Counted from the stretch's first letter, positions 1,814 through 40,327 are shown. The stretch is DNA of 64,000 bases from an uncultured virus (IMG/VR IMGVR_UViG_3300035682_000026) (IMGVR_UViG_3300035682_000026); one strand, 5' to 3'. Numbers and translations: made by a program. The notes: generated by a model not told the origin, from the sequence alone.

Positions 1814-1887
1814 AGCCTTGTATCGGGATTGAACCGATTCTATTCTAGGTTACAAATCTAGTGCACCACCATTTATGCGTACAAGGC
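1814..1887 (-). tRNA. tRNA-Thr(TGT)
   Basis: Cloverleaf, acceptor GCCTTGT/ACAAGGC, loop TT-TGT-AA. Confidence 0.9.
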
Positions 1888-1965
1888 AAAAATGAGATGG
1901 CATCGCTTACCATCTCGGAGTTGATATCATTACACTCCTTTGACATTTAAGTCAGCGATTTTTTG

Positions 1966-2047
1966 TGGGGCCGATAGGATTCGAACCTACTCAGCTTTCG
2001 CAACGGTGTTACAGACCGCCCCAACTCTCCAACTTTGGCGAGACCCC
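1966..2047 (-). tRNA. tRNA-Tyr(GTA)
   Basis: Loop CT-GTA-AC, long variable arm, GGTTCGAATCC T-arm. Confidence 0.92.
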
Positions 2048-2052
2048 AAATA

Positions 2053-2117
2053 CAGAATGGCATGTTACGATTCAAAGTAAAAATTTGATGTTTGTTAACT
2101 TGCTGAAACCATTCTTT
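2053..2117 (-). ncRNA. CWGCAA-stem ncRNA, copy A
   Basis: AGAATGG-TTT-CAGCAA...CCATTCT-G; one of six covarying copies. Confidence 0.65.
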
Positions 2118-2120
2118 ATC

Positions 2121-2768
2121 TTATTTTCTTCCTTGAATCCAATCCTCGTTAAGGTAAGTTTCAAGGTCTTCTTTTTTTATTTTTTTATTAATACCTTCTT
2201 TGGTAATCCAACATGTGCCATACTGTGAATTTGTTTCACCAGTTCCAGTACCTTTAGATGATTCAGACATCAATTGTTTAGTTTCATCAGAATGTTTTTT
2301 ATTTTTAAAACTACCAGGATTATCCTTAAAATATTTTAACCTACTAGCGACAATTTTATCGATATGTGTTTTTTCTAGAGTAGAACCCCTTCTTAAATCA
2401 GATGCTTTTTTATTTCCTATTATAAGACCCCATATTCTTCCTTCTTTAAACTTATTAAAATGTTCTTCATTAATAAAACCACCTTGACCACCTTCTTTAA
2501 GATTAATACATTTACCATCTGATATCAATTCTTTATTAACGATTTCAATCTCTCTAATAACCAATGCTTCTCTGCTTGGTAGATACTCAAGTATTTCTTT
2601 AGTATGATTATCTTTACCATATTTTCTTATTGAATACCTCAATATTGTCCCACTTCCCATATAACCATCTTCTATGTTACTTGTACTATGCATTCCTACA
2701 TACCATTTTCCTGTTACATTACATGTTGTTTTATATATGTAATGTATTGTTTTTTCTTTTCTTGCCAT
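2121..2768 (-). CDS. GIY-YIG (Seg-like) homing endonuclease with NUMOD3
   Basis: YIYKTT...WYVGMH...YMGSG; KHSDETKQLMS; paralog of 38188..38808. Confidence 0.9.
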   Translation of the reverse strand: MARKEKTIHYIYKTTCNVTGKWYVGMHSTSNIEDGYMGSGTILRYSIRKYGKDNHTKEILEYLPSREALVIREIEIVNKELISDGKCINLKEGGQGGFINEEHFNKFKEGRIWGLIIGNKKASDLRRGSTLEKTHIDKIVASRLKYFKDNPGSFKNKKHSDETKQLMSESSKGTGTGETNSQYGTCWITKEGINKKIKKEDLETYLNEDWIQGRK

Positions 2769-2817
2769 TGTCGTATATCTTTTATTATAAATATACAACA
2801 AAGTACAAAAAAGTCAA

Positions 2818-2892
2818 TGGTTGGAATACTAGGATTCGAACCTAGACGGACTGGCTCAAAACCAGTAATGCTAACCGTTACATTATATTCCA
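2818..2892 (-). tRNA. tRNA-Gln(TTG)
   Basis: Loop TT-TTG-AG, U1-A72, encoded CCA. Confidence 0.92.
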
Positions 2893-2895
2893 AAA

Positions 2896-2953
2896 TTTCT
2901 AATTCTACGCAGACGCTTAAACACCTGGGCCCCTATGAATTAGTAACAGTCTC
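2896..2953 (-). ncRNA. inter-tRNA structured motif, copy 1
   Basis: GAGACTGTTA-CTAATTC-ATAG...GCGTA-GAATTAG-AAA; repeated at 15059..15109. Confidence 0.55.
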
Positions 2954-2959
2954 TTCACG

Positions 2960-3032
2960 AGCAGAAGACGAGGCTCGAACTCGCAACCCCCAGCTTGGAA
3001 GGCTAGTGCTCTACCAATTGAGCTACTTCTGC
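2960..3032 (-). tRNA. tRNA-Gly(TCC)
   Basis: Canonical cloverleaf, loop CT-TCC-AA. Confidence 0.95.
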
Positions 3033-3099
3033 ATTATTTTTTGTTCATTATTTATGAGTGTTCATTGTACTTGAACATGTACCTTTCACTGAACACTTG

Positions 3100-3174
3100 T
3101 GCATCCATTGGGGCTCGAACCCAAACAGCCCATATTAAAAGTATGGTGCCTTATTCCATTTTGGCTATAGATGC
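3100..3174 (-). tRNA. tRNA-Lys(TTT)
   Basis: Stem CCATA/TATGG, loop CT-TTT-AA. Confidence 0.92.
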
Positions 3175-3191
3175 AATTAATTGTATTCTAG

Positions 3192-3263
3192 TAGCCCCAA
3201 CGGGAATCGAACCCATTTTCCTCCGTTAAAAGCGGAGTACATCGCCAGCAATGTTTTGAAGCC
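3192..3263 (-). tRNA. tRNA-Lys(TTT), second divergent copy
   Basis: Stem CTCCG/CGGAG, loop CT-TTT-AA. Confidence 0.85.
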
Positions 3264-3358
3264 ATAGTTATTACTATCCCTTCAACGCATCGAAGGCGGT
3301 TAGTGTTTACTCTTTATGTTCTTTATCTTTTTCATAATTTTTATTTTATTCTATTTTG

Positions 3359-3449
3359 TCTAAATGACGAGACTCGAACTCGCATTGAGCGTTTTAACAC
3401 TACTTCTCCATTCCAAGTGGAGTCGGCTTCCAATTGCCTTCACATCTAG
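3359..3449 (-). tRNA. tRNA-Pro(TGG) with long variable region
   Basis: C1-G72, A73, stem CTCCA/TGGAG, loop CT-TGG-AA, ~22-nt variable region. Confidence 0.85.
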
Positions 3450-3464
3450 TTTATTTTGTTGCAT

Positions 3465-3498
3465 AAAAAAACCCAGTTTAGATTTCTCTAACTGGGTT
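3465..3498 (-). terminator. attenuator terminator of tRNA operon 1
   Basis: AACCCAGTT-AGAGAAATCTA-AACTGGGTT followed by U tract. Confidence 0.9.
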
Positions 3499-3522
3499 AA
3501 TAAATAATACTTGCGTATTGTT

Positions 3523-3624
3523 TTACTTTATCATGTTTGACTTCATGACATACCCAGTTGTGCCTTGAGGCGTTCCGCCTTTAGGTTGATACTGTTTCGT
3601 TTGATATGTTTTTGTTGTCATCAT
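3523..3624 (-). CDS. leader peptide 1 MMTTKTYQTKQYQPKGGTPQGTTGYVMKSNMIK
   Basis: Between promoter and terminator; residues 3-25 all T/K/Y/Q/P/G. Confidence 0.85.
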   Translation of the reverse strand: MMTTKTYQTKQYQPKGGTPQGTTGYVMKSNMIK

Positions 3625-3659
3625 TGTTTCTAATTGTTGTGGGTTTTCCCCGTTTGTTT

Positions 3660-3701
3660 AATAAATATATGCAAATATACGAATGTTTTTCATTTAATCA
3701 A
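3660..3701 (-). promoter_or_regulatory. Bacteroidota-type promoter (TTG...TATATTTG) plus TATTTAT motif, tRNA operon 1
   Basis: Matches TAnnTTTG -7 consensus; near-identical to the operon 2 promoter. Confidence 0.8.
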
Positions 3702-3765
3702 GTTTTTTTTTAACTTTTTTTAATAAAAAATCATTTTATTATTTAAATCCTTGATATTAAAGGGT

Positions 3766-4209: not shown

Positions 4210-4210
4210 A

Positions 4211-4793: not shown

Positions 4794-5615
4794 TTATGAT
4801 TTAAGGAGTAATTCTTTTATATCAGAAACTAATCTTCTATGACCATCACCATAAAGTTGCCAAGCTAACCCCATTGCTTTTAAATCATAATGTTTCAATA
4901 TTGTTGAATAATTAGTTTCTCCTTCTGGAAATCCAACTACATAAATACTATCAGCCAATTCAGCCGCTAAACGAATATCGTGTGTGGAGAATATAATCGT
5001 ATTTAATTCATTAGCAGCACTAATTTTATCAAATGATTGTTTTACTTTTTCAATATTCCCAACATCTAACCCAGAGAATGGTTCATCTAATATCATAAAG
5101 TGTTTAGATGTAAGCATTTGCTCAATGATTGCTGTTCTTTGTCTTTGACCACCAGACAACTCACACGAGTATTTATCTTTGTGTTCCATCAACCCCCAAT
5201 CAGTTAAATACTCATTAATTATAGTATCTTTTTCAGCTTTTGTAAGTGTTGATTTTCTCAAAGCATACTCACATATCTGCGTAATGGTTTTGTGTCTAAA
5301 AAGGGTGTATTTTTGGTCTACAAACCCCATATCACCTTTATCTAATGGTTTAGCATCATTCTCATCTTCTGTAGTTAAATCAGTAATAAGGACTTGACCT
5401 TGTGTTGGTTTAAGCAAACCAGTAAGTCCTTTGAAAAGAGTTGATTTCCCTCTACCAGAACGACCAATGAACGCAATAACTTGTCCAGTTGATTGGTGGC
5501 CTTCTCTAACAATATCTTTAATATCAAAATTGATATTTTTAAGAATTGATTTCCCATCGTAACCTAAGCTAACATCATTGATGTACAATAGGGTTTTTGT
5601 TTCTTTATAACTCAT
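4794..5615 (-). CDS. ABC transporter ATPase (NitT/TauT-like)
   Basis: GRSGRGKST, LSGGQ, ILDEP, H-loop. Confidence 0.95.
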   Translation of the reverse strand: MSYKETKTLLYINDVSLGYDGKSILKNINFDIKDIVREGHQSTGQVIAFIGRSGRGKSTLFKGLTGLLKPTQGQVLITDLTTEDENDAKPLDKGDMGFVDQKYTLFRHKTITQICEYALRKSTLTKAEKDTIINEYLTDWGLMEHKDKYSCELSGGQRQRTAIIEQMLTSKHFMILDEPFSGLDVGNIEKVKQSFDKISAANELNTIIFSTHDIRLAAELADSIYVVGFPEGETNYSTILKHYDLKAMGLAWQLYGDGHRRLVSDIKELLLKS

Positions 5616-5625
5616 AATTTTATAT

Positions 5626-5982
5626 TTAATAACTTATTGTTCCTAATCTGTCAAAACTCGTAGCACCTTTGGTTTTATTACATATCATTAAGATTTTTTT
5701 GGTTTCGTAGTGTTTTATGTAATTTTCATCAAAATCAACGCCACTATATTCATCAATAAGTGACCAATTATCAAAACCAATATCATGTAATTCATATAAG
5801 GGTTTTTCATCTCTCTGTTGTCTTAAATTTAAACTTTCTAACAATGCTGTTCTTTTCATTCGCATTAGTTGAGTTTCTATAATTTCAAAATCAACAAAAT
5901 CAATAGCTGCTGGATGAAACATTTTAACCTCAGCATTATCTGGAAGTTTATCCAATAACTCTTTTAGTTTTTTAACTTTCAT
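5626..5982 (-). CDS. hypothetical protein
   Basis: 118 aa ORF with its own TATCTTTG promoter. Confidence 0.65.
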   Translation of the reverse strand: MKVKKLKELLDKLPDNAEVKMFHPAAIDFVDFEIIETQLMRMKRTALLESLNLRQQRDEKPLYELHDIGFDNWSLIDEYSGVDFDENYIKHYETKKILMICNKTKGATSFDRLGTISY

Positions 5983-6112
5983 AATTTTATTTTTTATTAG
6001 ACCACAAAGATACGTTTATTTTCTAAAACACCAAATTAATTTATAGTTTTATTTTAAAATACTTGACTTTTTATAATATTTCTATATATTTATATGTATA
6101 CACAACGTAAAG

Positions 6113-6277
6113 ATGAAAAAAGAAATTAAACACAACAAATTAATGAATGTTAGAATGTCAGAAAGTCTAATAAAAGAATATAAAAATCATTGTGAAAATA
6201 ATGGTTTAGTTATATCAACAAGAATAAGGTTCCTTATCCAAAAAGATATTGAAGGTAAAATTAAAATAGAAAAATAA
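6113..6277 (+). CDS. small ribbon-helix-helix-like protein (54 aa)
   Basis: MKKEIKHNKLMNVRMSESLIKEYKNHCENNGLVISTRIRFLI; TAATG overlap with the HNH gene. Confidence 0.7.
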   Translation: MKKEIKHNKLMNVRMSESLIKEYKNHCENNGLVISTRIRFLIQKDIEGKIKIEK

Positions 6278-6909
6278 TGGAAAACAAGTGCTGTAGAGAA
6301 TGTGGTTTATCTAAACCATTATGTGATTTTAGTTTATGTACCAAAAATAAAGATGGTTACAATAACTTTTGTAAATCATGCCGTAACGCTAAAGATAAAC
6401 TTTATCGAGACCAAAATAAAGAAAAAATATCTAATCGTTTAAAAGAATATAATGCTAAAGAAAATGTAAAGAAAATGCGTAGTGAATATGCAAGAAAGTT
6501 TAGACAAGAAAACCTTTTAGAAATGAGAAAAAAAGCATTAGAAAAACAAAAACTATTAAGAGAGACTGACCCATTTTTTAGATTCAAACAAAGCGTTAGA
6601 AATAGGATTAACAATTCACTAAAACATAATGGTATTAGAAAAAATTCAAAAACTGCTATAATACTTGGTTGTTCTTTCCAAGATTTTAGGGATTATTTAG
6701 AATCTAAATTTGAATCGTGGATGAATTGGGATAACAGAGGGTTATATAATGGAACACCAGAATATGGTTGGGATATTGACCATATGATACCTTCATGTTC
6801 AGCTAAAACGGAAGAAGAATTAATTCAACTTAATCATTATTCCAATCTTCAACCTTTATGTAGTTACATTAATCGTGATATAAAAAGAAATAACCCTATA
6901 AAAATATAG
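6277..6909 (+). CDS. HNH-family endonuclease
   Basis: WDIDHMIP...NHYSNLQPL; paralog of 24509..25051. Confidence 0.85.
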   Translation: MENKCCRECGLSKPLCDFSLCTKNKDGYNNFCKSCRNAKDKLYRDQNKEKISNRLKEYNAKENVKKMRSEYARKFRQENLLEMRKKALEKQKLLRETDPFFRFKQSVRNRINNSLKHNGIRKNSKTAIILGCSFQDFRDYLESKFESWMNWDNRGLYNGTPEYGWDIDHMIPSCSAKTEEELIQLNHYSNLQPLCSYINRDIKRNNPIKI

Positions 6910-6919
6910 GGTTATTTTA

Positions 6920-7696
6920 TTAAAAATTAGAAAATCTAAATACAAGTTTTCGCAATCTAGTAAGTAAGAAATCTAAACAAACTCCAATTATAATTATAAT
7001 TGCTTGTATAGCAATAACTCTTCCGTTACTTCCAAGTCTATCACCATTTTTAATTAGTACACCTAAACCACCAGCGGCAACTAATATAGACTCTATCGTC
7101 ACCAACATAACCCATACAATTGCTAGATTTTGTCTAACCAATTCTATTACATAATCTAACCTACCTTTGATTACGACTTCCCATAAGGTTTCCCAATGAT
7201 TACACCCAAGTGTTTTAGCATGTTCAAATTCTTCATTTGGTATATCCTTAATCATTTGAATAAGACTGGTGATAAGAAATGTAGACATAAAGATAACAAG
7301 TACCCAAACTTGAATTTGTCTCGCATCTGAAATCATTATTGTAATGTAAAATGCTATTCCAGTTGGTGGTAAGTATCTTAATTTAGATAAGAATGTTCCT
7401 AATGATTTAGAGAAAGCAATTGTTGTTAAGTAAGCAAATATCATTGAGATAATCACTGAAAAGAATATTGCTTGGAAACACAATGATAGTGAACTAGCTA
7501 ACTGTGTAATAAGACCCTCTGACCATACATCACCTAAACCTTTAAATACTTGTGCAGGTGTTGGGAATAAATGTGTTGTTCCTATTGAACTGGACACAAA
7601 CCAAAATGTAATCAATAAAGCTAACCATACTGTTACAATGATTGTTTTTGAAGAACTTTTAAGTTCTTGAAACGGAGTAAAAAACTTTTTTATCAT
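6920..7696 (-). CDS. ABC transporter permease
   Basis: Multiple TM helices, EAA-like EHAKTLG. Confidence 0.9.
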   Translation of the reverse strand: MIKKFFTPFQELKSSSKTIIVTVWLALLITFWFVSSSIGTTHLFPTPAQVFKGLGDVWSEGLITQLASSLSLCFQAIFFSVIISMIFAYLTTIAFSKSLGTFLSKLRYLPPTGIAFYITIMISDARQIQVWVLVIFMSTFLITSLIQMIKDIPNEEFEHAKTLGCNHWETLWEVVIKGRLDYVIELVRQNLAIVWVMLVTIESILVAAGGLGVLIKNGDRLGSNGRVIAIQAIIIIIGVCLDFLLTRLRKLVFRFSNF

Positions 7697-7765
7697 TTTA
7701 TATAATTTAATTTATAAAAAAACCGTGACTATTTGCCACGGTTTTCTATATGTTTTATATGGCAA

Positions 7766-9580
7766 TTACTTTAATAACGTAATTTCAACTCTACGGTTTT
7801 TAGCTTTACCACTTGCAGTTGAGTTATCAGCTACTGGATTAGCATCACCTTTACCATCAACCGTTTGGAAACGGTCACCTGAGATACCTCTACCTTTCAA
7901 GTAACTTACAACTGATTGAGCACGACCATTAGATAATGTTACGTTACTAGCAGGATTACCTACGTTATCAGTATATCCAATCACTTTCAATTTAGTTTCC
8001 TCTGCTTGAGTTAACAAGTTATAGATGGTTTCTAAATCTTTGGTTGACCCAGAGATAGTTGCACTACCATTATCAAAGTTGATGTTCCATTGTCCGTTAG
8101 CTAATACTGAAGTTTTAGTTTCAGAATAACTAATTTTTTGAACACTACCTTTATCATTAACATTTGCAGATGTTAAGAAGTATAAGTTAACTGCATCATC
8201 GTAAGGTACAACACCATCTGGATTAGACTCATTAAAACCACATGGATTTAAGTCAGTCAAATAAGCTGAAACTTGTTCGTAAACTGCTTTATAACGATTT
8301 TTACCATCTGTGATACCGTAATACTGCATTGCATCAGCATAGTTAAATACACGTGAACCACCGATATTATAATCTAAACCATCTTTGGTACCTTTTTGAC
8401 CTTTAAACATATCATACCAGTATTTAGGTGTTTCAAAGTTATATGTTAAAGCTACAGCTTCTGAAGCTCTAACAGCCCATTCATCATATTGTTTAATTTG
8501 ATTAGAAGCAACAAATGTTTGTTTCAATATAGCGATAACTTCTTTATCGTGTTGCAAAGCCCATTCTTTAACACCTACAAGTGTTGTAGCCATTTGATTT
8601 ACAAACTCTTTAGTTGATACGATATCTGTAAAACCACTCAACGCATCAAAAGCCATTTTATCCCCTGGTGTCCATGTAGTTGCACCATCAATTTTATGAT
8701 TGATTGTTTTACCAGTTAATTTACCATTAACAACTTCTTTCAAAGGTACAGTATAACCAGTTTTTTGAGATTTAATCAATTCTTTTACAGAGTTAATATA
8801 ATCATCATCTTGTGATGGTACGAAGTTAATCGCATTGGCATCCCAAGTTGTTGGGTCTGGATTGATAGCAATTTTATTAGCAGCAGCATAGTTACATGCA
8901 ACTACCCAGTCACCATCACCAATTACTGAAGATATAACACAACCTTTCATTGATTGAGGATTATCTTTCCAAATTCTTGGTCCAATTACTTTATCTTCAC
9001 CATATGATAATCCATATGCTCCAAGAACTTGTACGTGATATTTACCTTTACCGAATTTTTCATCTAATGATTTTTGTGTAGTTGTAATATAGAATGGAAC
9101 ACCATCACCCATGATACTTACAGCAAATGCTGATTTATCTGATTTTGGATAAGCCACACCTGAAGCAAATTCTTCAACAAATTTAATTTGCATATCACGT
9201 AGACCACCTACCATGTCTTGTCTTACGATTTCTAAGTTAACACCTGCGGCTTCAATAAGAGACCCTTCAGTTGTTCTTGGTCCACCATTTGCAACAATCA
9301 TTCCAGCATTACCATTCCACGCATACTCCGCAATACGAATAAGTCCTTTCGAAGCTACTTCAGTAGATACCGTTTCTGATGGCAAAGGTAATTTAGCACC
9401 TTTAGTTACGTTGTTAAGGTCACCACCTTCAATTGTTAATCCAGTTAACTGTTTTGATACAGCCACTCTAAGTCCAGGTGCGAAAAAATACACACCAGTT
9501 AATAATACAGCAACACCTAGTGCTACGATAAAACCTTCTGCTAAGGTTGTTAATTTTTCTTGTTTAAGAATTCTTCCCAT
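7766..9580 (-). CDS. substrate-binding-like protein with C-terminal OmpA peptidoglycan-binding domain
   Basis: N-terminal TM; GYTDNVG...LSNGRAQSV...NRRVEI. Confidence 0.85.
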   Translation of the reverse strand: MGRILKQEKLTTLAEGFIVALGVAVLLTGVYFFAPGLRVAVSKQLTGLTIEGGDLNNVTKGAKLPLPSETVSTEVASKGLIRIAEYAWNGNAGMIVANGGPRTTEGSLIEAAGVNLEIVRQDMVGGLRDMQIKFVEEFASGVAYPKSDKSAFAVSIMGDGVPFYITTTQKSLDEKFGKGKYHVQVLGAYGLSYGEDKVIGPRIWKDNPQSMKGCVISSVIGDGDWVVACNYAAANKIAINPDPTTWDANAINFVPSQDDDYINSVKELIKSQKTGYTVPLKEVVNGKLTGKTINHKIDGATTWTPGDKMAFDALSGFTDIVSTKEFVNQMATTLVGVKEWALQHDKEVIAILKQTFVASNQIKQYDEWAVRASEAVALTYNFETPKYWYDMFKGQKGTKDGLDYNIGGSRVFNYADAMQYYGITDGKNRYKAVYEQVSAYLTDLNPCGFNESNPDGVVPYDDAVNLYFLTSANVNDKGSVQKISYSETKTSVLANGQWNINFDNGSATISGSTKDLETIYNLLTQAEETKLKVIGYTDNVGNPASNVTLSNGRAQSVVSYLKGRGISGDRFQTVDGKGDANPVADNSTASGKAKNRRVEITLLK

Positions 9581-12456: not shown

Positions 12457-12477
12457 AGTATTAAATTTAAATATTAG

Positions 12478-12551
12478 TGGTGCGAGATGGATTTAAACCA
12501 CCGCCACCTAGCTTTTCAGGCTAGTGCTCTATCAGGCTGAGCTATCGCACC
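12478..12551 (-). tRNA. tRNA-Phe(GAA), second copy
   Basis: Stem CTAGC/GCTAG, loop CT-GAA-AA; T loop TTTAAAT. Confidence 0.85.
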
Positions 12552-12776
12552 TTTAATGGATAAACATTTCCAAGTGTCTATCCTTAGCAGTTTTTATATC
12601 TAGCATTGGCTGAAAACTACAAAACCAGTTCAATTTTTACTCTTGGAAGAGGGATAGTTGAACTCCAACCCAGTTGATATGGTACAACTATTAAACCCCG
12701 AACTTGAGTTGTCGGCAACTCTACGTAATCCTAACATTAAACTTCCTAGGTTTTAATGAAATTCTTACACACATTG

Positions 12777-12853
12777 TGGAGAAAGCAAGAATCGAACTTG
12801 CGACCTACGGACCCAATAAAGTGACCACATTCTGCCAACTGATATATTTCCCC
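12777..12853 (-). ncRNA. tRNA-like RNA with irregular anticodon arm
   Basis: Acceptor GGGGAAA/TTTCTCC and T arm good; anticodon arm poorly paired. Confidence 0.6.
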
Positions 12854-12993
12854 ATTTGTTAGTTATGTCTGTAGGACTTCTGACATAATTCCCTATGATT
12901 ATCTTTTTACAACCCCTCATAGAACTAACGTTTTTATTTATGCAAATATATACATAACATTTCAATTAAACAAGTTTTTATTAAACTTTTTTT

Positions 12994-13887: not shown

Positions 13888-13947
13888 ATTTTTTTTTACA
13901 AACATACAATAAAAATATAATTAATACAATAAAAAATATAAAATTTG

Positions 13948-14020
13948 TTGAGGAAGAGGGTTTCGAACCCTACACTACCACCCGTCTAGGTGGCCTTCTA
14001 ACCAATTAAAGTATCTCCCA
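13948..14020 (-). ncRNA. tRNA-like RNA with 6-nt anticodon loop
   Basis: D and T arms present; CCACC-TAGACG-GGTGG. Confidence 0.6.
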
Positions 14021-14913: not shown

Positions 14914-14982
14914 ATCTAACAATTTTAATTAGGGTACAAAGATAATCATTAATTTCAATTAAACAAATTTATTTTTTTTTTG

Positions 14983-15055
14983 TGGAGCTACTCGGACTCG
15001 AACCGAGTTCTGCTGGGTGCAAGCCAACTATTTTTGCCTGGTAAACTATGGCCCC
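14983..15055 (-). tRNA. tRNA-Ala(TGC)
   Basis: G3-U70, loop CT-TGC-AC. Confidence 0.9.
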
Positions 15056-15058
15056 AAT

Positions 15059-15109
15059 TTTCTAATTCTACGCTTACAATATGTAGTTCTATGAATTAGT
15101 AACAGTCTC
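15059..15109 (-). ncRNA. inter-tRNA structured motif, copy 2
   Basis: Same conserved flanks as 2896..2953, different inner hairpin. Confidence 0.55.
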
Positions 15110-15116
15110 ATCTGTG

Positions 15117-15188
15117 CGGTCTATGACGGTAACGCTCCGTCTACTCAACAGTGACAGTGTTGGATGATAACTTTTTCACCAATAGACC
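15117..15188 (-). tRNA. tRNA-Asp(GTC)
   Basis: Loop CT-GTC-AC, G73; atypical T loop AGCGTTA. Confidence 0.85.
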
Positions 15189-15196
15189 AATTTTTG

Positions 15197-15268
15197 TAGC
15201 CCCACGGAGAATCGAACTCCGATTTACTGGTCGAAAACCAGTCGTCCTAACCGTTAGACGATAGGGCC
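15197..15268 (-). tRNA. tRNA-Glu(TTC)
   Basis: Stem ACTGG/CCAGT, loop TT-TTC-GA. Confidence 0.92.
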
Positions 15269-15424
15269 AAATTTGGAAGGTACTGCCTTAGAGTGACACC
15301 TTCCAGGAGCGTTCTTGACAAGAACACACAAGACCATCGAATCTTACGATTTCCATTGGATTAATGCTTTCAGTTGTTCTCGTACAACTGATACCCTTCG
15401 ATACTGGTAAGTAAAACGCTCTAG

Positions 15425-15498
15425 TGGACCCCCTCGGACTCGAACCGAAACCTCTAGTTCTTCAGACTAACGTGACACACCATTTACACCAGAGGTCC
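15425..15498 (-). tRNA. tRNA-Phe(GAA)
   Basis: Loop CT-GAA-GA, acceptor GGACCTC/GGGGTCC. Confidence 0.9.
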
Positions 15499-15513: not shown

Positions 15514-15543
15514 AAAAAAAGCCTGACTTATTAGGTCAGGCTT
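15514..15543 (-). terminator. attenuator terminator of tRNA operon 2
   Basis: AAGCCTGAC-CTAATAA-GTCAGGCTT followed by U tract. Confidence 0.9.
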
Positions 15544-15568: not shown

Positions 15569-15655
15569 TTAACTTATGACAGTGTTTGACCTTCCTTGTG
15601 AGTAATCCTCAAAGGCTGCAGTTTCAAATCTAAAATCGTTAGTTAATGTTCTCAT
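15569..15655 (-). CDS. leader peptide 2 MRTLTNDFRFETAAFEDYSQGRSNTVIS
   Basis: Core DFRFETAAFED has 9 of 11 residues F/E/D/A. Confidence 0.8.
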   Translation of the reverse strand: MRTLTNDFRFETAAFEDYSQGRSNTVIS

Positions 15656-15687: not shown

Positions 15688-15729
15688 AATAAATATATGC
15701 AAATATACGAATGTTTTATTAATAATCAA
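15688..15729 (-). promoter_or_regulatory. promoter of tRNA operon 2
   Basis: TTG...CGTATATTTGCATATATTTATT, as for operon 1. Confidence 0.8.
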
Positions 15730-18444: not shown

Positions 18445-18508
18445 GTTTGTGTTTTATAATAAATATCAACTATTTTTGAATATTCATTAATAACTTTTAA
18501 AATGTTAG

Positions 18509-18582
18509 TACATCCACTAGGATTCGAACCTAGGACCCCTTGCATGTAAAACAAGTGCTCTAACCAACTGAGCTATAGATGC
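18509..18582 (-). tRNA. tRNA-Val(TAC)
   Basis: Loop TT-TAC-AT, canonical D and T arms. Confidence 0.93.
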
Positions 18583-18588
18583 ATATTG

Positions 18589-18669
18589 TACTCATGGTCG
18601 GACTCGAACCGACACGCCTTGCGACACCAGATTCTAAATCTGACGGGTCTACCATTCCCCCACACGAGC
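18589..18669 (-). tRNA. tRNA-Leu(TAG)
   Basis: Loop TT-TAG-AA, long variable arm. Confidence 0.92.
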
Positions 18670-18708
18670 TAGTTTTGCTTATCAAGGAAAGCATCGGTAA
18701 AACCTTTG

Positions 18709-18782
18709 TACCCCCGATGGGATTTGAACCCACACTGTACAGGGTTTAAGTCTGATGCCTCTTCCGATTGGGCTACAGGGGT
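18709..18782 (-). tRNA. tRNA-Leu(TAA), short variable arm
   Basis: Acceptor ACCCCTG/CGGGGGT, loop CT-TAA-AC, weak anticodon stem; overlaps the HNH stop codon. Confidence 0.75.
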
Positions 18783-19243
18783 CTTTTTTTGTTTCTAACT
18801 GTAGTTGTTTGGCTATGACAATTTGGACATAAAATTTTTAAATTTTCTAACCTATTATCCGTATTATCACCGTTGATATGTTCTAACTCTAAGGTTATTT
18901 CTTTACCATTCCATTCAACAATACCACATTCTTCACATTGTTTTGTTTTTATTCCTTCTTTGAATAATCTCTTTTTTAAACTATTACCGTTTTTATATGG
19001 TGAGTTTTCCACCAATGCATCGACTAATTCATAAGTTTTACCAAATGGGGTGAATTTTTCGCCTTGATTCCAAGCTGCACCAGTAAAATGACTAGTATCA
19101 ATTTCCCATTCTTTAAACTTAGCATATAATGTTTTGTAATTACCACCACATGCTTTCATATTCAACTCACGACATACACCAGCTACCGCTAATGATTTTC
19201 TAACCGCTTCTTCTAATTCTTCTTTAGTATGTTTATATCTCAT
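18773..19243 (-). CDS. HNH homing endonuclease
   Basis: LEHINGDNTDNRLENLKILCPNCHSQT. Confidence 0.92.
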   Translation of the reverse strand: MRYKHTKEELEEAVRKSLAVAGVCRELNMKACGGNYKTLYAKFKEWEIDTSHFTGAAWNQGEKFTPFGKTYELVDALVENSPYKNGNSLKKRLFKEGIKTKQCEECGIVEWNGKEITLELEHINGDNTDNRLENLKILCPNCHSQTTTVRNKKRPL

Positions 19244-19290
19244 ACTAATAAATATATAGAATTCTATAAAAAAGTAAACACTAAGTAAAA

Positions 19291-19324
19291 AAGTCCAGCG
19301 TGTCTACCATTCCACCACTCGGCC
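19291..19324 (-). pseudogene. 5' half of a tRNA-Leu, truncated in the anticodon loop
   Basis: GGCCGAG-TG-GTGGAATGGTAGACAC-G-CTGGA-CTT then unrelated sequence. Confidence 0.8.
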
Positions 19325-19337
19325 AAAATGGAAATAA

Positions 19338-19493
19338 TTACTCTTCGATTTCCATTGGTGTTTCTTCTAAGCCTTCTTCAGCTAATTTAGCTTCTTCATA
19401 AGCTTTTGCACATCTATGATGCAGGAATTTTCCATTATTTACCGCAGCAACCCCTAGGATTGATTCTCCGCAATGTTCGCATGTAAATGTCAT
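19338..19493 (-). CDS. small Zn-finger protein (51 aa)
   Basis: MTFTCEHCGESI...FLHHRC. Confidence 0.55.
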   Translation of the reverse strand: MTFTCEHCGESILGVAAVNNGKFLHHRCAKAYEEAKLAEEGLEETPMEIEE

Positions 19494-19572
19494 ATCTTAT
19501 TATTTTAATTCTTTTAAGCTCACGCTTATGTTATTTGTAGCTCATTTTATCACTAATTTGAGCTTTATCCAG

Positions 19573-19597
19573 AGGCGTGAACAGGATTCGAACCTGT
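19573..19597 (-). pseudogene. 3' fragment (T arm and acceptor strand) of a tRNA, probably Cys
   Basis: ACAGG-TTCGAAT-CCTGT-TCACGCC-T (U73). Confidence 0.7.
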
Positions 19598-19599
19598 TA

Positions 19600-20049
19600 T
19601 TATTTAATATTCTCATACCACCAACCAAATTGTTTAGATGTTCTGATTCTATGGCAATTAGCACATAAAACATTACATTTTTCTATTTCTGCTAATATAG
19701 TGGCCCAATTATACGAATATATCATAGACGAGATACCATATTTTTTTTCTTTTTCATCTTTATGGTCAAAATCTAAAACTATTGGATTAGATTCGTCACA
19801 AACAACACAATGGTGTGTTTTAAAATATTCTAATAAATTTACCCTATTTTCAGATGTTTTTATTTTTTTTCTTATGTTAATACGTTCTAAATATTCTTCT
19901 TTATATTTGGCGTAATGTTCTTTATTTTTTCTTTTTTCTTTATAACAACTTTTACATTGTGAATGTAATTTATTTGTTTTTTTATTTTTGAAAAAGAAAT
20001 CACAAATTTCTTTTTCTTCACCACATTGTGTACATTTTTTTGTTTCCAT
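19600..20049 (-). CDS. HNH endonuclease
   Basis: CVVC...LDFDH...KCNVLCANCHR. Confidence 0.9.
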   Translation of the reverse strand: METKKCTQCGEEKEICDFFFKNKKTNKLHSQCKSCYKEKRKNKEHYAKYKEEYLERINIRKKIKTSENRVNLLEYFKTHHCVVCDESNPIVLDFDHKDEKEKKYGISSMIYSYNWATILAEIEKCNVLCANCHRIRTSKQFGWWYENIK

Positions 20050-20110
20050 ATTTGTTTTTATTATAAATATGGAATAAAACTGCAAAACACAAAATTTATT
20101 TGCAGTTTAG

Positions 20111-20183
20111 AGCCGAAGGTTGGATTCGAACCAACGAATAGTGGTTTTGCAAACCACCCCCTTAACCACTTGGGTACATCGGC
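20111..20183 (-). tRNA. tRNA-Cys(GCA)
   Basis: Stem GTGGT/ACCAC, loop TT-GCA-AA, U73. Confidence 0.92.
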
Positions 20184-20228: not shown

Positions 20229-20263
20229 AAAAAAAACCCATTTAATTTGACTTAAATGGGTTT
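20229..20263 (-). terminator. attenuator terminator of tRNA operon 3
   Basis: AAACCCATTTAA-GTCAAA-TTAAATGGGTTT followed by U tract. Confidence 0.9.
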
Positions 20264-20287: not shown

Positions 20288-20362
20288 TCAACAACCATAA
20301 CCCATCGTGCCCACCACTAGTGAACATAATACAAGGACCAATAACATTGCTAAATTTTTCAT
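20288..20362 (-). CDS. leader peptide 3 MKNLAMLLVLVLCSLVVGTMGYGC
   Basis: Core LLVLVLCSLVV has 10 of 11 residues L/V/C. Confidence 0.8.
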   Translation of the reverse strand: MKNLAMLLVLVLCSLVVGTMGYGC

Positions 20363-20402: not shown

Positions 20403-20443
20403 ATAAATATAAGCAAATATACAAAAAGATTCCTAATAGTCAA
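20403..20443 (-). promoter_or_regulatory. promoter of tRNA operon 3
   Basis: TTG...TATATTTG followed by TATATTTATT. Confidence 0.75.
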
Positions 20444-26587: not shown

Positions 26588-27879
26588 TAGTTTCCAATTT
26601 CAATTAAATGCGATACAGTACATTGTGCTGCGTTATAAACGATGTATTCATTGTTTCTTAAATCAGCACCACCTTTGGCAAATACTGAATCGTAATCGTC
26701 TTTTTTCAATACTTTATCAGATAATGAATAACAACTAGATGTGTGGTTAAGGATTTCTTTTTGATTTCCTAAATGAACATCAAACAACGCTAAATATGCT
26801 TTATCATCACCACCTTTGGTCCAATAAGAACCTCTCAACGATGAATAACCGATAGATTTCTGTGCTTTATCAGCAAAGTAGATACCATCACCAAACATAC
26901 TACCAGTATGAACAGCACCAGAAGGTCTAATCAATAAACCAGTTTGTAAGATGTTAAACCAGTTCTCATTACGGGAACCATGCCAGTAAAGTCTTCTTTT
27001 CTTAACCTTAGCTTGTTCAAAGTGAGTGTCAAATACTTTTTGTGTTTTGGTATTAACAACCTTAAAGACTTGTTTAACTTGGTGAGCGTTAGGGCCCATA
27101 AGCTTAGTGACAAGAGCAAGTGTTTCAGTATCTTCTTCAACATCAACTCTAAGACCCATTTGGTCAAGGATTGTAATTTGGTCAACTTGTTCTTCTTCTG
27201 GAGCGTCAGCAGCGGCTTTTTGTTGTTTAATCAATTGAACCTGACCTGCCATCGTATCTAATGTAGATTGTTCTTGTCCAATGAATTTTTGTGCTTTTTC
27301 TAAGGAATTAACATCGTTTACATCATTGATAAGATAATCACGTACATTATCCATTCTTCTAGGGATAATGGTATATAATTTAAGTAACAAGTCATTGATG
27401 TCTTTCTTATCAACATTCAAGACCAATTTAAAACTAATAGTATCAATTAATTCCTGAGCAGCATTTACTTGTTGTTCAGATACAGCTTCTTGAGTAACCT
27501 TATAGTTTCTTTGGATTGCTTTGTTTGCAAAGCTCATTAATTGGTCGATAAGTCTTTTAACCACAGAGTTTTTAATCTCTTCAGTTTTAGCAGTAGCTGT
27601 TGAACCACTGGTAGCATCAATTACTGGTTCAGCTAAGAATTCAGTAACATCAGTATAACCTTTTGTTTTAGATAGTTTCTGTTTAAGAACACTATCCCAT
27701 TTGCTTGAAGGTTTAATCTCAGTAGTTAAACTACGTCCAACTCTACCGTATTCACATTTGATAGTACCATCGGAAAGTTCTTCCATGATATAAACTTTGT
27801 TACTATTATCAGTCATTCCGTTATCAACAGAAACATGAATTAATTTGGCGTATCTTAAACCGTTTTCTTTAATTATCAT
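26587..27879 (-). CDS. PARP-like ADP-ribosyltransferase (WGR, regulatory and catalytic domains)
   Basis: YGRVG; LYTIIP; WHGS, GSMFGDGIYFA, NEYIVY (H-Y-E triad). Confidence 0.9.
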   Translation of the reverse strand: MIIKENGLRYAKLIHVSVDNGMTDNSNKVYIMEELSDGTIKCEYGRVGRSLTTEIKPSSKWDSVLKQKLSKTKGYTDVTEFLAEPVIDATSGSTATAKTEEIKNSVVKRLIDQLMSFANKAIQRNYKVTQEAVSEQQVNAAQELIDTISFKLVLNVDKKDINDLLLKLYTIIPRRMDNVRDYLINDVNDVNSLEKAQKFIGQEQSTLDTMAGQVQLIKQQKAAADAPEEEQVDQITILDQMGLRVDVEEDTETLALVTKLMGPNAHQVKQVFKVVNTKTQKVFDTHFEQAKVKKRRLYWHGSRNENWFNILQTGLLIRPSGAVHTGSMFGDGIYFADKAQKSIGYSSLRGSYWTKGGDDKAYLALFDVHLGNQKEILNHTSSCYSLSDKVLKKDDYDSVFAKGGADLRNNEYIVYNAAQCTVSHLIEIGN

Positions 27880-34337: not shown

Positions 34338-34342
34338 AATTT

Positions 34343-35576: not shown

Positions 35577-36143
35577 TTATTTAATATTAATTATAGAAGG
35601 ATTATAAACTATTATATGTTTTATATCTTCATAGTCTTTATTTACTATAATACCATCAATACCCAACGATACACAATTTCTAACAAATTCAACTGGATTA
35701 TACCTATAAAAATCAATCCATACTTGGAGAATACAATCTTTTTCATTATCATTATATTCCATAGAATCTTCAATAAATGTTTGAATACCTCTTATTGGGT
35801 CTTCACCCCAATTTTGTGCCGAACCTTCCCAATCATCAGCCATCATAGCTAATTTTTTCATAAAAGGTCTTATTTTAACTTTGTTTATAGGAACCTCATC
35901 AAATAAAATATTAGGTTTTAAAATTACACTATAAACGTTTTCACCATAACGATTTGCCTCTTCTTCTGATGTTGTAAAATAAATACCAGGACCTTCTCTA
36001 TCAAATGCTTCTTGACCACCAACAAAATCATCAATAAATTTATTTATCTTGGTTGGGCTACCATGAAAGACATGATATTCTCCACCAGCAATTGCTTCTG
36101 GTAATAATGATTCTCTAAGTTGTTGTCTAATTAATTTTTTCAT
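35577..36143 (-). CDS. ADP-ribosyltransferase-like protein with MKKLIRQQLRESL N-terminus
   Basis: VFHGS...GPGIYFT...DGII...IVYNP. Confidence 0.6.
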   Translation of the reverse strand: MKKLIRQQLRESLLPEAIAGGEYHVFHGSPTKINKFIDDFVGGQEAFDREGPGIYFTTSEEEANRYGENVYSVILKPNILFDEVPINKVKIRPFMKKLAMMADDWEGSAQNWGEDPIRGIQTFIEDSMEYNDNEKDCILQVWIDFYRYNPVEFVRNCVSLGIDGIIVNKDYEDIKHIIVYNPSIINIK

Positions 36144-36145
36144 AT

Positions 36146-37973: not shown

Positions 37974-38014
37974 AATAGTGTTTATTGATAAATATGTAGA
38001 TTTATATAAAAGTG

Positions 38015-38101
38015 CGGAGAGCAAGGGAATCGAACCCTCACCGCTATTACACGGAACACCTTAGCAGGGTGCCACCACAAACCAATATTAGTCTACTCTC
38101 C
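38015..38101 (-). tRNA. tRNA-Ser(GCT)
   Basis: Loop CT-GCT-AA, long variable arm, G73. Confidence 0.9.
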
Positions 38102-38108
38102 AATTTAG

Positions 38109-38181
38109 TACCCCCACAGGGATTCGAACCCCGATTATACATCTTAGAAGGATGTTGCATTTCCATTTATGCTATGAAGGC
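38109..38181 (-). tRNA. tRNA-Arg(TCT)
   Basis: Stem ACATC/GATGT, loop CT-TCT-AA. Confidence 0.92.
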
Positions 38182-38187
38182 AAATAA

Positions 38188-38808
38188 TTATGCTCTACCT
38201 ATTACCCAGTTTTGTTCAAGCCAAATTTCAAGGACTTCTTTTTTTATTTTTTTGTTCTCACCATCTTTGGTTATCCAACAAGTACCATATTGTGAATTTG
38301 CTTCACCAATACCTGTATTTTTTCTTTGTTCAGACATTATTTTTTTAGTTTCTTCTGAGTGATTTTTTCCAATCCAATCATAAGATTTTTTATCTAAATG
38401 TAATTGTTTCATATTGTTAGAAACTATCTTTCTATGTTTCTCACTAAATTCTAAATCTTGTTCTAATTTATTTTTAAGAGCGTCACCACCACGTTTTGAA
38501 ATTTCATAACTAATAAACCCACCACAACCACCTTCTTTAAGGTTCATACATTTACCGTCAGAAATCAATTCTTTAGTAACAATCTCGGATTCTCTAAAAA
38601 CCAACGCTTCTTTAGAATCACAAAATTCTAGAATTTCTTTAGTATGTTTTTCCACACCATATTTTCTTATACTACGTTTTAGTATTCTTCCGCTACCCAT
38701 GTATCCATCTTCTAATGTATATGCACTATGCATACCAACATACCATTTTCCTGTTACATTACATGTTGTTTTATATATGTAATGTATATTTCTTACTTTT
38801 CTTGCCAT
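38188..38808 (-). CDS. GIY-YIG (Seg-like) homing endonuclease
   Basis: Close paralog of 2121..2768. Confidence 0.9.
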   Translation of the reverse strand: MARKVRNIHYIYKTTCNVTGKWYVGMHSAYTLEDGYMGSGRILKRSIRKYGVEKHTKEILEFCDSKEALVFRESEIVTKELISDGKCMNLKEGGCGGFISYEISKRGGDALKNKLEQDLEFSEKHRKIVSNNMKQLHLDKKSYDWIGKNHSEETKKIMSEQRKNTGIGEANSQYGTCWITKDGENKKIKKEVLEIWLEQNWVIGRA

Positions 38809-38857
38809 ATGTTATATCTTTTATAATAAATATAACATAAAGGACAAAAAAGTCAAG

Positions 38858-38930
38858 TAGCCCTACAGGGATTCGAACCCCAATTCTAGCATTCGTAGTG
38901 CTAAGTCCTATCCAGTTGAACGATAGAGCC
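38858..38930 (-). tRNA. tRNA-Arg(ACG)
   Basis: Stem TAGCA/TGCTA, loop CT-ACG-AA. Confidence 0.92.
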
Positions 38931-38935
38931 ATTTG

Positions 38936-39005
38936 TAGCGAGTATGGGAGCCGAGCCCATTTATTCATCTTTATGAGGGATGAACGTTTTCCAATAACCC
39001 TCGCC
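38936..39005 (-). tRNA. atypical tRNA(CAT), Met or Ile2
   Basis: CT-CAT-AA loop; shortened D arm, T loop CTCGGCT. Confidence 0.6.
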
Positions 39006-39011
39006 ATTACG

Positions 39012-39085
39012 CTCCTCAGCCAGGCTTTGAACCTGGAACTTCCACTTTAACAGAGTGGCACTCTAACCAATTGAGTTACTGAGGA
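39012..39085 (-). tRNA. tRNA-Asn(GTT)
   Basis: Stem CCACT/AGTGG, loop CT-GTT-AA, G73. Confidence 0.93.
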
Positions 39086-39136
39086 ATTTATTACCAGCCA
39101 AATCTATACTTTAAATACAACATTTGGCTGATATTG

Positions 39137-39210
39137 TTGCCTCGCTGGGGCTCGAACCCAAGACCTACGCATTATGAGTGCGGTGCTCTAACCATCTGAG
39201 CTACAAGGCA
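39137..39210 (-). tRNA. tRNA(CAT), Met or Ile2
   Basis: Canonical cloverleaf, loop CT-CAT-AA. Confidence 0.9.
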
Positions 39211-39218
39211 ATATTTAG

Positions 39219-39290
39219 TAGGCATGTTGGGACTCGAACCCAAAATACAAAAGTATCAGTCTTGCGTGATAACCATTTCACCACACACCT
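39219..39290 (-). tRNA. tRNA-Ile(GAT)
   Basis: Loop CT-GAT-AC. Confidence 0.9.
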
Positions 39291-39301
39291 ATTTTGGAAG
39301 T

Positions 39302-39493
39302 CTATGACTTCCATTGTGTTTTTCGGTTATACTTCCAAGTTTTATGTTCTCTATATTTGTGAGAGAACTGACCTTTTCTGTAATAAACACCCTCATCCCA
39401 ATAAGGTGGGTATTCAAATTTTAACCAAATAATTCTGTAATCTTTAGAACAAGTTGCTTTTTTCAACTTCATTCTGTTTGTGTTTACACTCAT
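39302..39493 (-). CDS. small basic hypothetical protein
   Basis: 63 aa ending KTWKYNRKTQWK. Confidence 0.6.
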   Translation of the reverse strand: MSVNTNRMKLKKATCSKDYRIIWLKFEYPPYWDEGVYYRKGQFSHKYREHKTWKYNRKTQWKS

Positions 39494-39564
39494 AACTTTT
39501 CAGTCTATTGTTTAGTAGACCTCAAAGCATATCAAATTCTTTTTTCATTTTTTTATTATATTTG

Positions 39565-39636
39565 GGTATAACCACGGTATCGAACCGAGTTCTTCAGATT
39601 CACAGTCTGACGCTTCACCTTAAAGCTTGAAATACC
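39565..39636 (-). tRNA. tRNA-His(GTG)
   Basis: Stem TCAGA/TCTGA, loop CT-GTG-AA, G-1/C73. Confidence 0.88.
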
Positions 39637-39752
39637 ATATTTAGTTTATCTTTACCTCATTTCTGCGGTGATAATCGCCTGTAACTTTAAAAGTTATAAA
39701 CTATGCGGTGATTATCTGGCTATTCTCCGCATTTTTGCGGTGATTAGCTTTG

Positions 39753-39823
39753 CACGTCCAGAGGGATTCGAACCCCCATCAACGCTTTTGGAGAGCGTGA
39801 TGCTACCGTTGCACCATAGACGT
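39753..39823 (-). tRNA. tRNA-Trp(CCA)
   Basis: Stem ACGCT/AGCGT, loop CT-CCA-AA, G73. Confidence 0.93.
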
Positions 39824-39829
39824 ATTTTG

Positions 39830-39921
39830 AAGAAGGAGTGGGACTCGAACCCACACATCCGTTTTACGGGACCCTCCGCTTTCAAGGCGGCTGCCGCTAG
39901 ACCAACTCGGCTTACCCTTCC
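39830..39921 (-). tRNA. tRNA-Ser(TGA)
   Basis: Loop CT-TGA-AA, long variable arm. Confidence 0.9.
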
Positions 39922-40110
39922 ATTTTATTCTTTTATATCAACAAAGATAATGGTAAACCCACCTTCTTTTTGAAATCTTAATTCACCATGATAACCACTT
40001 GCATCAGCTATCTTTCTATACTTGTCAACTATGAGGTCAAAATCTTTCATTAAGTTAACAGTTTTTTCTTTTCCTAAATTTCTCACTAGATTTCCCATAT
40101 TCATTAAAAT

Positions 40111-40146
40111 AAAAAAACCTGACTAGTTTTGATGTAGTCAGGTTTT
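40111..40146 (-). terminator. attenuator terminator of tRNA operon 4
   Basis: AAAACCTGACTA-CATCAAAAC-TAGTCAGGTTTT followed by U tract. Confidence 0.9.
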
Positions 40147-40168
40147 AATTGTTATATTTTGTTTTGAG

Positions 40169-40270
40169 TTATACTTCCGTACCACCTTGACAATTACACA
40201 TACCTGCTACTGGGCGACTATTACGTCTCCAATTGCTAATCGATATCATATGTATGTTAATTGTTGTCAT
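40169..40270 (-). CDS. leader peptide 4 MTTINIHMISISNWRRNSRPVAGMCNCQGGTEV
   Basis: Residues 4-19 all I/N/H/M/S/W/R. Confidence 0.88.
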   Translation of the reverse strand: MTTINIHMISISNWRRNSRPVAGMCNCQGGTEV

Positions 40271-40296
40271 TTTTTTGTTTGTTTTTAATTTCTTTG

Positions 40297-40327
40297 CAAA
40301 TATACTAACTTATTTAATACAAGTCAA
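40297..40327 (-). promoter_or_regulatory. promoter of tRNA operon 4
   Basis: TTG...TATATTTG. Confidence 0.75.

Follow-up and report, generated by a model that had tools for sequence, protein, structure and literature searches.

The 64,000-nucleotide (nt) stretch of DNA from the uncultured virus IMGVR_UViG_3300035682_000026 (IMG/VR), here called the window, encodes four arrays of tRNA genes, and each array is preceded by a short leader open reading frame (ORF) that is rich in codons for the amino acids of its own tRNAs. The observation of four leader-gated arrays is confirmed, and each unit is very probably a ribosome-mediated transcription attenuator that gauges the rate at which the codons of its own block are decoded. 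This attenuator reading, which had been proposed from the sequence alone, is supported by the conservation of the units, by covariation of the antiterminator with the terminator, by the geometry of ribosome stalling and by leaders that follow the array content in unrelated phages. All four units (4/4) lie on the minus strand in the order promoter, leader ORF, intrinsic terminator and tRNA array, and the elements described in the sequence-only reading, i.e., a TAnnTTTG promoter, an ORF of 24-33 codons, a U-tailed terminator and tRNAs, were all found in the places where it had put them.

The promoter boxes read TAnnTTTG and have a TTG 22-23 nt upstream. In operon A the -7 box (3672..3679; TTG 22 nt upstream) is followed by a leader ORF of 33 codons (3523..3624) with a P/K/G/Q/Y/T core and a sensing window reaching to about codon 20, by an antiterminator strand (3552..3559) forming an 8-nt complement of the terminator 5' arm, by the terminator (3465..3498; -14.1 kcal/mol, U7, hairpin end 3471) and by array A (1813..3449), which encodes Pro(UGG), two Lys(UUU), Gly(UCC), Gln(UUG), a homing endonuclease (2121-2801), Tyr(GUA) and Thr(UGU). 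Operon B comprises the box at 15700..15707, a leader of 28 codons (15569..15655) with an F/E/D/A core and a sensing window to about codon 19, an antiterminator strand at 15576..15592 (outer helix 15587-15592, nested inner helix 15576-15581), a terminator at 15514..15543 (-13.0 kcal/mol, U7, hairpin end 15520) and the array 14982..15498 with Phe(GAA), Glu(UUC), Asp(GUC) and Ala(UGC). The box of operon C (20414..20421) precedes a leader of 24 codons (20288..20362) with a C/L/V core and a sensing window to codon 17, an antiterminator strand (20299..20306), a terminator (20229..20262; -12.2 kcal/mol, U8, hairpin end 20236) and the array 18508..20183, in which Cys(GCA) is followed by HNH genes (19600-20085 and 18773-19243), Leu(UAA), Leu(UAG) and Val(UAC). 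Operon D has its box at 40297..40304 and a second one at 40379-40386, a leader of 33 codons (40169..40270) with an S/W/H/I/M/N/R core at codons 4-19, a 9-nt antiterminator strand with one bulge on the partner strand (40202..40210), a terminator at 40111..40144 (-11.9 kcal/mol, U7, hairpin end 40117) and the array 38014..39921, encoding Ser(UGA), Trp, His, Ile(GAU), an Ile2-like CAU tRNA, Asn, a Met-like CAU tRNA, Arg(ACG), a GIY-YIG-type homing endonuclease (38188-38808), Arg(UCU) and Ser(GCU). Inside the arrays no promoter box with an upstream TTG at the usual distance was found.

The match between leaders and arrays was scored on whole leaders, without choosing a core, against 10^6 random partitions of the 20 amino acids that kept the sizes of the four sets. 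Of the 114 leader residues, 64 belong to the set of the leader's own array, while the random partitions gave a mean of 29.7 and a maximum of 59, and 0/10^6 reached at least 64. Taken singly, leaders A, C and D have P values of 1e-7, 4e-5 and 1e-3, respectively. The core counts reported earlier (23/23, 9/11, 10/11 and 16/16 residues) are correct, but in the A core the last five residues reach or cover the antiterminator, where sensing is impossible. The 16 core codons of leader D (UCG, UGG, CAU, AUU, AUA, AAY, AUG, CGY, AGA and AGY) represent one box for each of the ten tRNAs of array D.

Related loci were collected with four protein queries, which yielded 113 viral loci, several of them copies of the window genome. 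Scanning the window and these loci with a rule that ignores composition (promoter, short ORF, terminator and a tRNA within 400 nt) gave 55 distinct units, of which 53 contain such leaders and two contain unrelated ORFs. A set of 67 leaders was then formed by removing the two unrelated ORFs, keeping a distance of 45-65 nt between stop codon and U-tract, and adding three leaders with distant or no tRNAs and 12 chosen by eye. A leader precedes 56 of the 57 distinct array starts with at least three tRNAs, the exception being a Leu/Met/Met group; leader positions had also helped to split these arrays. The four-way partition of the window recurs in relatives, sometimes with extra tRNAs, and the complete amino-acid set was found within the sensing window of all A-D leaders scored (53/53). 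When only the D motif was used as the query, 51 viral loci and one genome locus were retrieved, which make up 39 distinct complete units. The terminator lies 50-65 nt past the stop in all 39, tRNAs follow in 36 of them, and an unconstrained spacer is always 15 or 18 nt long. All free codons of these units (231/231) stay inside the S/W/H/I/M/N/R set in variable order, and a set that is kept while the codon order varies is the mark of a translated ORF that was selected for its composition.

Other phages distribute the tRNAs differently, and their leaders follow. The marine cultured Cellulophaga phage phi4:1 carries three units, each with a matching leader, terminator and antiterminator, and with arrays for P/E/Q/H/L/R, A/K/I/G/(CAU)/D/T/V/R and Y/S/N/W/F/C; the gene of the Cys tRNA is annotated as pseudo, and its anticodon was assigned by eye. 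The three phi4:1 leaders lie at 87065-87133, 88025-88108 and 89771-89869 of NC_021788. One of them begins with GTG and is annotated as hypothetical gp075. In the phi4:1 leaders 49 of 78 residues match their own array, compared with 27.3 for random partitions (3/200,000). Tenacibaculum phage Gundel_1, likewise a marine cultured phage with a partition differing from that of the window, has two units in which 19 of 41 residues match (vs. 8.3). Two leaders of cultured phages have AUA in place of an internal AUG, and the CAU tRNAs in their arrays are Ile2-like or initiator-like. Among the uncultured loci (L074, L111 and L119 among them), leaders follow partitions such as E/Y, I/G, L/R/E/I/Q and Gln alone. 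The system is simplest in the Gln-only units, where seven Gln codons in a row precede arrays of only three or four tRNA-Gln genes (L111 at 16024, L119 at 15572). A leader-matched Leu/Ser/Cys array is also present in the 636-kb phage LR756504. In the 24 kb read of Flavobacterium phage immuto_2-6A (Immutovirus) no leader-terminator unit was found before its four tRNAs. The check that had been proposed together with the sequence-only reading, i.e., whether the leader bias is kept in homologues and changes with array content, thus came out in its favor, both for the free D codons and for the new partitions. Adjacency in the genetic code accounts for the phi4:1 partition (37065-40926 of L115; 36 vs. 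22.9, p 7e-5), largely through the first codon letter. It does not account for the window partition (19 vs. 17.8, p 0.38).

In every leader family the tail of the ORF contains a strand that copies the 3' arm of the terminator and changes along with it. It had been claimed that these strands track their own terminators. In a 4x4 duplex test this was found for leaders A, B and D, which pair best with their own arm, but not for leader C, which pairs about equally well with arm B (-10.8) and with its own (-10.4). The antiterminator duplex is stronger than in synonymous shuffles at p<=0.05 in 47/67 leaders, and duplexes of -10 kcal/mol or below were found in 49/67 leaders vs. 1/33 ordinary gene-end terminators. 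In an alignment of family C (20 sequences) five of nine antiterminator pairs show two-sided changes. The covariation score was reached by 0/500 shuffles, a test that kinship can inflate, but the slid registers all gave lower scores. MAFFT alignments of A plus D and of B were inspected by eye only.

The position of the stalled ribosome was modeled by masking a footprint from -15 to +10 on the nascent RNA. In these folds the antiterminator persists up to ribosome positions at about codons 15-21 and collapses beyond them. In 54/66 leaders the matched core stops between -2 and +1 codons from the last position at which the ribosome still leaves the antiterminator intact. Counted from this limit, cognate codons make up 89-98% of those at offsets -6 to -2 but 17-29% of those at +1 to +6. 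The D unit of the window is an outlier in the core-end count, as its weaker helices last to codon 24, with the main helix lost past codon 18. A hairpin at the core end adjoins the antiterminator in the units displayed, and the core competes with it in 60/67.

Taken together, the following mechanism is proposed. Host RNA polymerase would initiate at the TAnnTTTG promoter and a ribosome would initiate on the leader, whose translation is suggested by the A-rich context free of Shine-Dalgarno sequences and by the coding signature. If a core codon is short of charged tRNA, the ribosome would wait at about codons 4-20, and the strand just past its footprint would pair with the emerging 5' arm of the terminator, so that the polymerase enters the tRNA block. 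With fast decoding the ribosome would overrun the strand, the more stable terminator would form and transcription would end. The alternative structure is found computationally, and we infer the switching from it. As the product is tRNA itself, the circuit would exert a negative feedback on decoding capacity, with a block being on when its tRNAs are scarce and off once these are restored.

Several observations weigh against this mechanism or limit its reach. It speaks for the mechanism that a ribosome in the core makes the antiterminator state more competitive than does one at the stop (67/67) or the absence of a ribosome (60/67), but the first of these figures is partly built in, because masking the strand weakens it. 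The folding with and without a masked ribosome that had been suggested as a check was thus only in part favorable: a ribosome in the core favors the antiterminator, but in full-length equilibrium folds of the window units the terminator never opens, and with a stalled ribosome it still wins by 4-9 kcal/mol in all four. E. coli control attenuators behave alike or worse in equilibrium folding, so that this method is unable to prove a switch. Phage units and controls alike have a terminator that exceeds the antiterminator in stability, so the choice would be kinetic. In leaders A and D a ribosome at the stop leaves the strand free to pair again behind it (mean occupancy 0.58 and 0.70); closing that loop around the ribosome is probably slower than local hairpin folding. 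The core-end (pause/1:2) hairpin beats synonymous shuffles in only 2/65 leaders. The B unit of the window is weak, with a composition that is not significant on its own (9/27, P 0.17) and a duplex p of 0.10 against shuffles. In three loci (L104 at 12244, L161 and L175) leader and terminator are intact and no tRNA was detected behind them; L161 and L175 continue instead with a new promoter and a gene for a protein. Some array tRNAs are unsampled by their leader, i.e., His in B of L058 and Ala in A of L096. Finally, the loci are kin to one another and the counts do not represent independent events.

A further caveat had concerned the antiterminator strand, which was said to start 15-39 nt before the leader stop. 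It begins 34 (A), 21 (B), 15-16 (C) and 35-39 (D) nt before the stop, and this proved to be no weakness, as the corresponding distance is 31 nt in E. coli ilvL and leuL; the suspicion of a kinetic decision stands.

Since the output is tRNA, the feedback helps against a missing tRNA and not against a missing amino acid, and this favors tRNA loss as the purpose of the switch. The likeliest natural shortage during infection would be the loss of host tRNAs through defense nucleases or general decay. The sensor is coarse, with 3-7 amino acids per switch. A narrower purpose of the same switch, in which the attenuators evolved to detect anticodon-nuclease cleavage of particular host tRNAs and turn on the matching block, is a real possibility that we hold tentatively. 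It fits with RNA-repair genes in the same region, with 20 amino acids in 3-4 separately gated blocks, as suits a partial loss, and with the existence of tRNA-cutting defenses against which phage tRNAs rescue infection in a dosage-dependent manner (PMC11555353, PMC13096335, PMC12409363). However, 3-7 amino acids per block are far coarser than the single target of a nuclease, the partition varies between phage groups, and gating responds more slowly than a strong constitutive promoter. It is unlikely that the leaders are amino-acid starvation sensors borrowed from host biosynthetic attenuators, by which the phage would raise the tRNA supply in starved hosts. A stalled ribosome, as in the trp, his and ilv leaders, cannot distinguish an uncharged from a missing tRNA, and codons rare in the phage are enriched in the window cores (13/52 vs. 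3.9 expected; ACG, CCG, UCG, GAG and GCC are among those preferred), as would be expected for starvation-sensitive codons. But extra tRNA is no remedy for an absent amino acid, the sets ignore biosynthetic families (Leu and Val are grouped with Cys, and Ile is found elsewhere), and the rare-codon skew is located in part at third bases that are paired (113/196 vs. 253/577). The skew thus partly reflects RNA structure, and the remainder may come from tuning to wobble decoding or to the isoacceptors of the host.

Even without a ribosome the nascent RNA keeps the 5' arm sequestered (mean occupancy 0.68-0.79), so that a general arrest of translation may induce all blocks. The units might accordingly be thought of as a general gauge of translation coupling, in which a lagging or absent ribosome raises all four blocks together and the codon match serves only for fine-tuning, and a cyanobacterial tRNA operon is indeed induced by general translation stress (PMC10272220). 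This is quite improbable, as it leaves unexplained why all free D codons stay inside their set, why the leaders cover their sets in full and why they follow new partitions. That there is no regulation at all, the ORFs being functional peptides or chance products and the hairpins processing or constitutive signals, is very improbable. The N-termini and cores of the leaders are conserved in sequence and three leaders have no tRNAs behind them, as this explanation would allow; yet the residue order of the cores varies while their composition holds, the antiterminator covaries with a terminator where ordinary terminators have no such strand, and a constitutive terminator ahead of every array would silence the arrays. 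The codon-gauging attenuator described above is the preferred reading.

The tRNA content required some corrections. It had been stated that the arrays cover all 20 amino acids, and this still holds, but the CAU tRNA at 39136-39210 in array D, called Met by ARAGORN, aligns with Ile2-type scaffolds and with the Ile2-type copy of relatives, and the Met role probably falls to a second, divergent CAU tRNA at 38936-39005 (minus strand). The latter folds into a cloverleaf with a short D arm, fills an 80-nt gap in the array and was missed by ARAGORN and Rfam; it is likely the elongator tRNA-Met, both labels being putative and based on scaffold likeness and a consensus. Array D therefore counts ten tRNAs, not nine. 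In array A the tRNA-Thr was found by Rfam and lies under the default score of ARAGORN, and the tRNA-Pro(UGG) (3358-3449, minus strand) has a long variable arm and lies under the Rfam gathering score. Immediately before tRNA-Thr there is a 7-bp hairpin with five U (1888-1915, minus strand), absent in seven related loci, which could uncouple Thr from leader A or act as a processing signal. In array C the 5' half of a tRNA-Leu, broken at the anticodon, lies just before the HNH gene 18773-19243 (19285-19322, minus strand) and looks split by a homing-endonuclease insertion. It is followed at about 19273 by a weak hairpin and U-run, which could reduce read-through into the Leu and Val genes.

Outside the arrays the window encodes a second Phe, a UUA suppressor-like tRNA, an initiator-like Met, a Gln-like element and a transfer-messenger RNA (tmRNA), which have promoters and no leader-terminator unit. 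For the suppressor-like tRNA, the second Phe, the initiator-like Met and the tmRNA the lack of an attenuator is expected, because an elongation sense codon cannot report such tRNAs. The UUA suppressor-like tRNA and the second tRNA-Phe share the region 12477-12950 (minus strand) with their own promoter, and relatives too carry tRNAs with UUA, CUA or UCA anticodons. A tRNA-like element with a four-base anticodon call (13947-14020, minus strand), which also occurs in L018, L027, L048 and L096, is followed in the window by a LAGLIDADG-domain gene. At 48169-48760 (minus strand) a promoter precedes about 400 nt of structured-looking non-coding sequence, the Gln-like element and the initiator-like tRNA-Met; the only Rfam match there is tRNA. 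The phage tmRNA (49289-49662, minus strand) has an unusual tag peptide and adjoins the ClpP gene.

The first cistron behind attenuator D is a conserved gene for a protein of 57 amino acids (aa) (39925..40098, minus strand). An ORF of 50-70 codons occurs at the same place in 35/39 D units, and one copy (L175) is disrupted. The protein is predicted with a pLDDT of 87 to form a small beta-alpha-beta-beta domain. No Pfam family was found for the window copy, with a weak DUF2585 match in 11/36 members; there was no atlas hit, the PDB had no sequence that matched under E 0.19, viral matches at E<=0.001 were absent, and in the structure search the best fold, with Z 5.2, was no clear match. In L133 (2441 and 4001 region) two different D leaders follow one another at a distance of 1.56 kb, and both have a terminator and a small-protein gene of their own.

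The window contains 30% G+C, and its long ORFs lie mostly on the minus strand. Homing endonucleases, a DNA ligase, two RNA ligases, a CCA-adding enzyme, an RlaP-type nucleotidyltransferase, ClpP, DnaJ, a PARP-domain protein, an endolysin and the tmRNA are encoded. The RNA ligases, the CCA-adding enzyme, the nucleotidyltransferase and the tmRNA were counted toward the attenuator reading. Between arrays A and B there are genes for an ABC transporter ATPase, a permease and an OmpA-domain protein (4794-9580, minus strand), and the PARP-domain protein and a protein with an ART-PolyVal-type ADP-ribosyltransferase domain are encoded at 26587-27879 and 35577-36143 (minus strand). Relatives were found on viral contigs of up to 368 kb, so the source of the window is most likely a jumbo phage. 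A Bacteroidota host is suggested by the promoters, as TAnnTTTG with an upstream TTG is the housekeeping consensus of this phylum (PMC7366714, PMC9723704), by the lack of a Shine-Dalgarno core in the stretch checked upstream of the starts of 41 long window genes (0/41) and of the leaders (0/67), and by the DNA ligase, whose best named match is that of phage phi4:1 (54%). Against it counts the sole genome hit of the D-motif search (L178), which comes from an assembly titled Gammaproteobacteria and is taken for a phage contig binned with that genome. Leader-peptide attenuation has been suspected in Flavobacterium (PMC9723704), and the supplements of that paper list structured leaders that could be relevant to attenuators of the host. 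Among named phages, nucleotide searches matched single tRNAs only. In public sequencing runs relatives occur as assembled contigs only (shares 0.07-0.28), which is uninformative on termination and expression.

In its design the switch belongs with the classical leader-peptide attenuators, among which ilvL comes nearest to it. E. coli ilvL (Ile/Leu/Val), thrL (Thr/Ile) and leuL likewise have a short ORF with cognate codons, an antiterminator in the ORF tail and a terminator about 50 nt past the stop. With 32 codons, a strand 31 nt before the stop, a window closing at codon 20 (the end of the Ile run) and 51 nt from stop to U-tract, ilvL resembles phage leaders A and D (33 codons, strand 34-39 nt before the stop, stop-to-U 54 nt); the same calculation gave 31 and 45 nt for leuL. 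In contrast to these, the phage leaders are phage-borne, control tRNA genes rather than biosynthetic enzymes, sample 3-7 amino acids each, often with one codon per tRNA, span as a set the whole code and start without a Shine-Dalgarno sequence. In the amino-acid operon class as a whole (trp, his, thr, leu, ilv, phe and pheST) the regulated genes make or charge the amino acid, whereas those behind the phage leaders encode tRNAs, homing endonucleases and the 57-aa protein. The attenuation of E. coli pheST by pheM feeds back on the supply of charged tRNA as proposed for the phage units, but it regulates the charging enzyme for one amino acid, and its antiterminator strand sits past the stop. T-box riboswitches are also terminator/antiterminator switches read by tRNA status (PMC7778990), but their direct ligand is the uncharged tRNA, so that the absence of a tRNA escapes them. 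No T-box was matched in the window, where Rfam at the gathering score gave tRNA and tmRNA only, nor around leader D at E<=5. The trn operon of Anabaena under TrcR is a silent tRNA array induced by translation stress (PMC10272220, PMC8421152), but it is one array with a protein repressor acting at initiation and no codon specificity, and in PMC8421152 the words "attenuat" and "leader" occur zero times. The dosage of phage tRNAs decides the escape from tRNA-cutting defense, as for the tRNA-Tyr of T5-like SP15 against retron-Eco7 (PMC11555353) and for T6 SegB amplification against Septu (PMC13096335), where homing endonucleases also lie in the arrays. The dosage is set there by a strong promoter or by gene amplification; both words are absent from the main texts of these two papers, which do not describe control of the present kind. 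As the sequence-only reading had supposed, no account of attenuation of tRNA genes was found in the literature searched, subscription papers lying outside its coverage. The target, the breadth and the feedback logic match no family found.

It has long been asked why phages carry large tRNA sets, and the answers given at present take the genes as simply expressed. A codon-matched attenuator would mean that the tRNAs are made on demand, which favors explanations based on tRNA shortage over static codon compensation, and the textbook attenuator would become a feedback loop on tRNA abundance. The chances appear even that many Bacteroidota phages, ranging from an isolate of 79 kb to giants of 640 kb, use a panel of a few leaders to sample every elongator tRNA, each leader inducing only its matching block (plus the small protein in D), as an inducible feedback counter to tRNA-destroying immunity; these would be the first tRNA genes regulated by their own decoding rate. 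With phi4:1 on Cellulophaga baltica the question is open to a direct bench test, and the leaders could be compact reporters of tRNA-targeting defenses in Bacteroidota.

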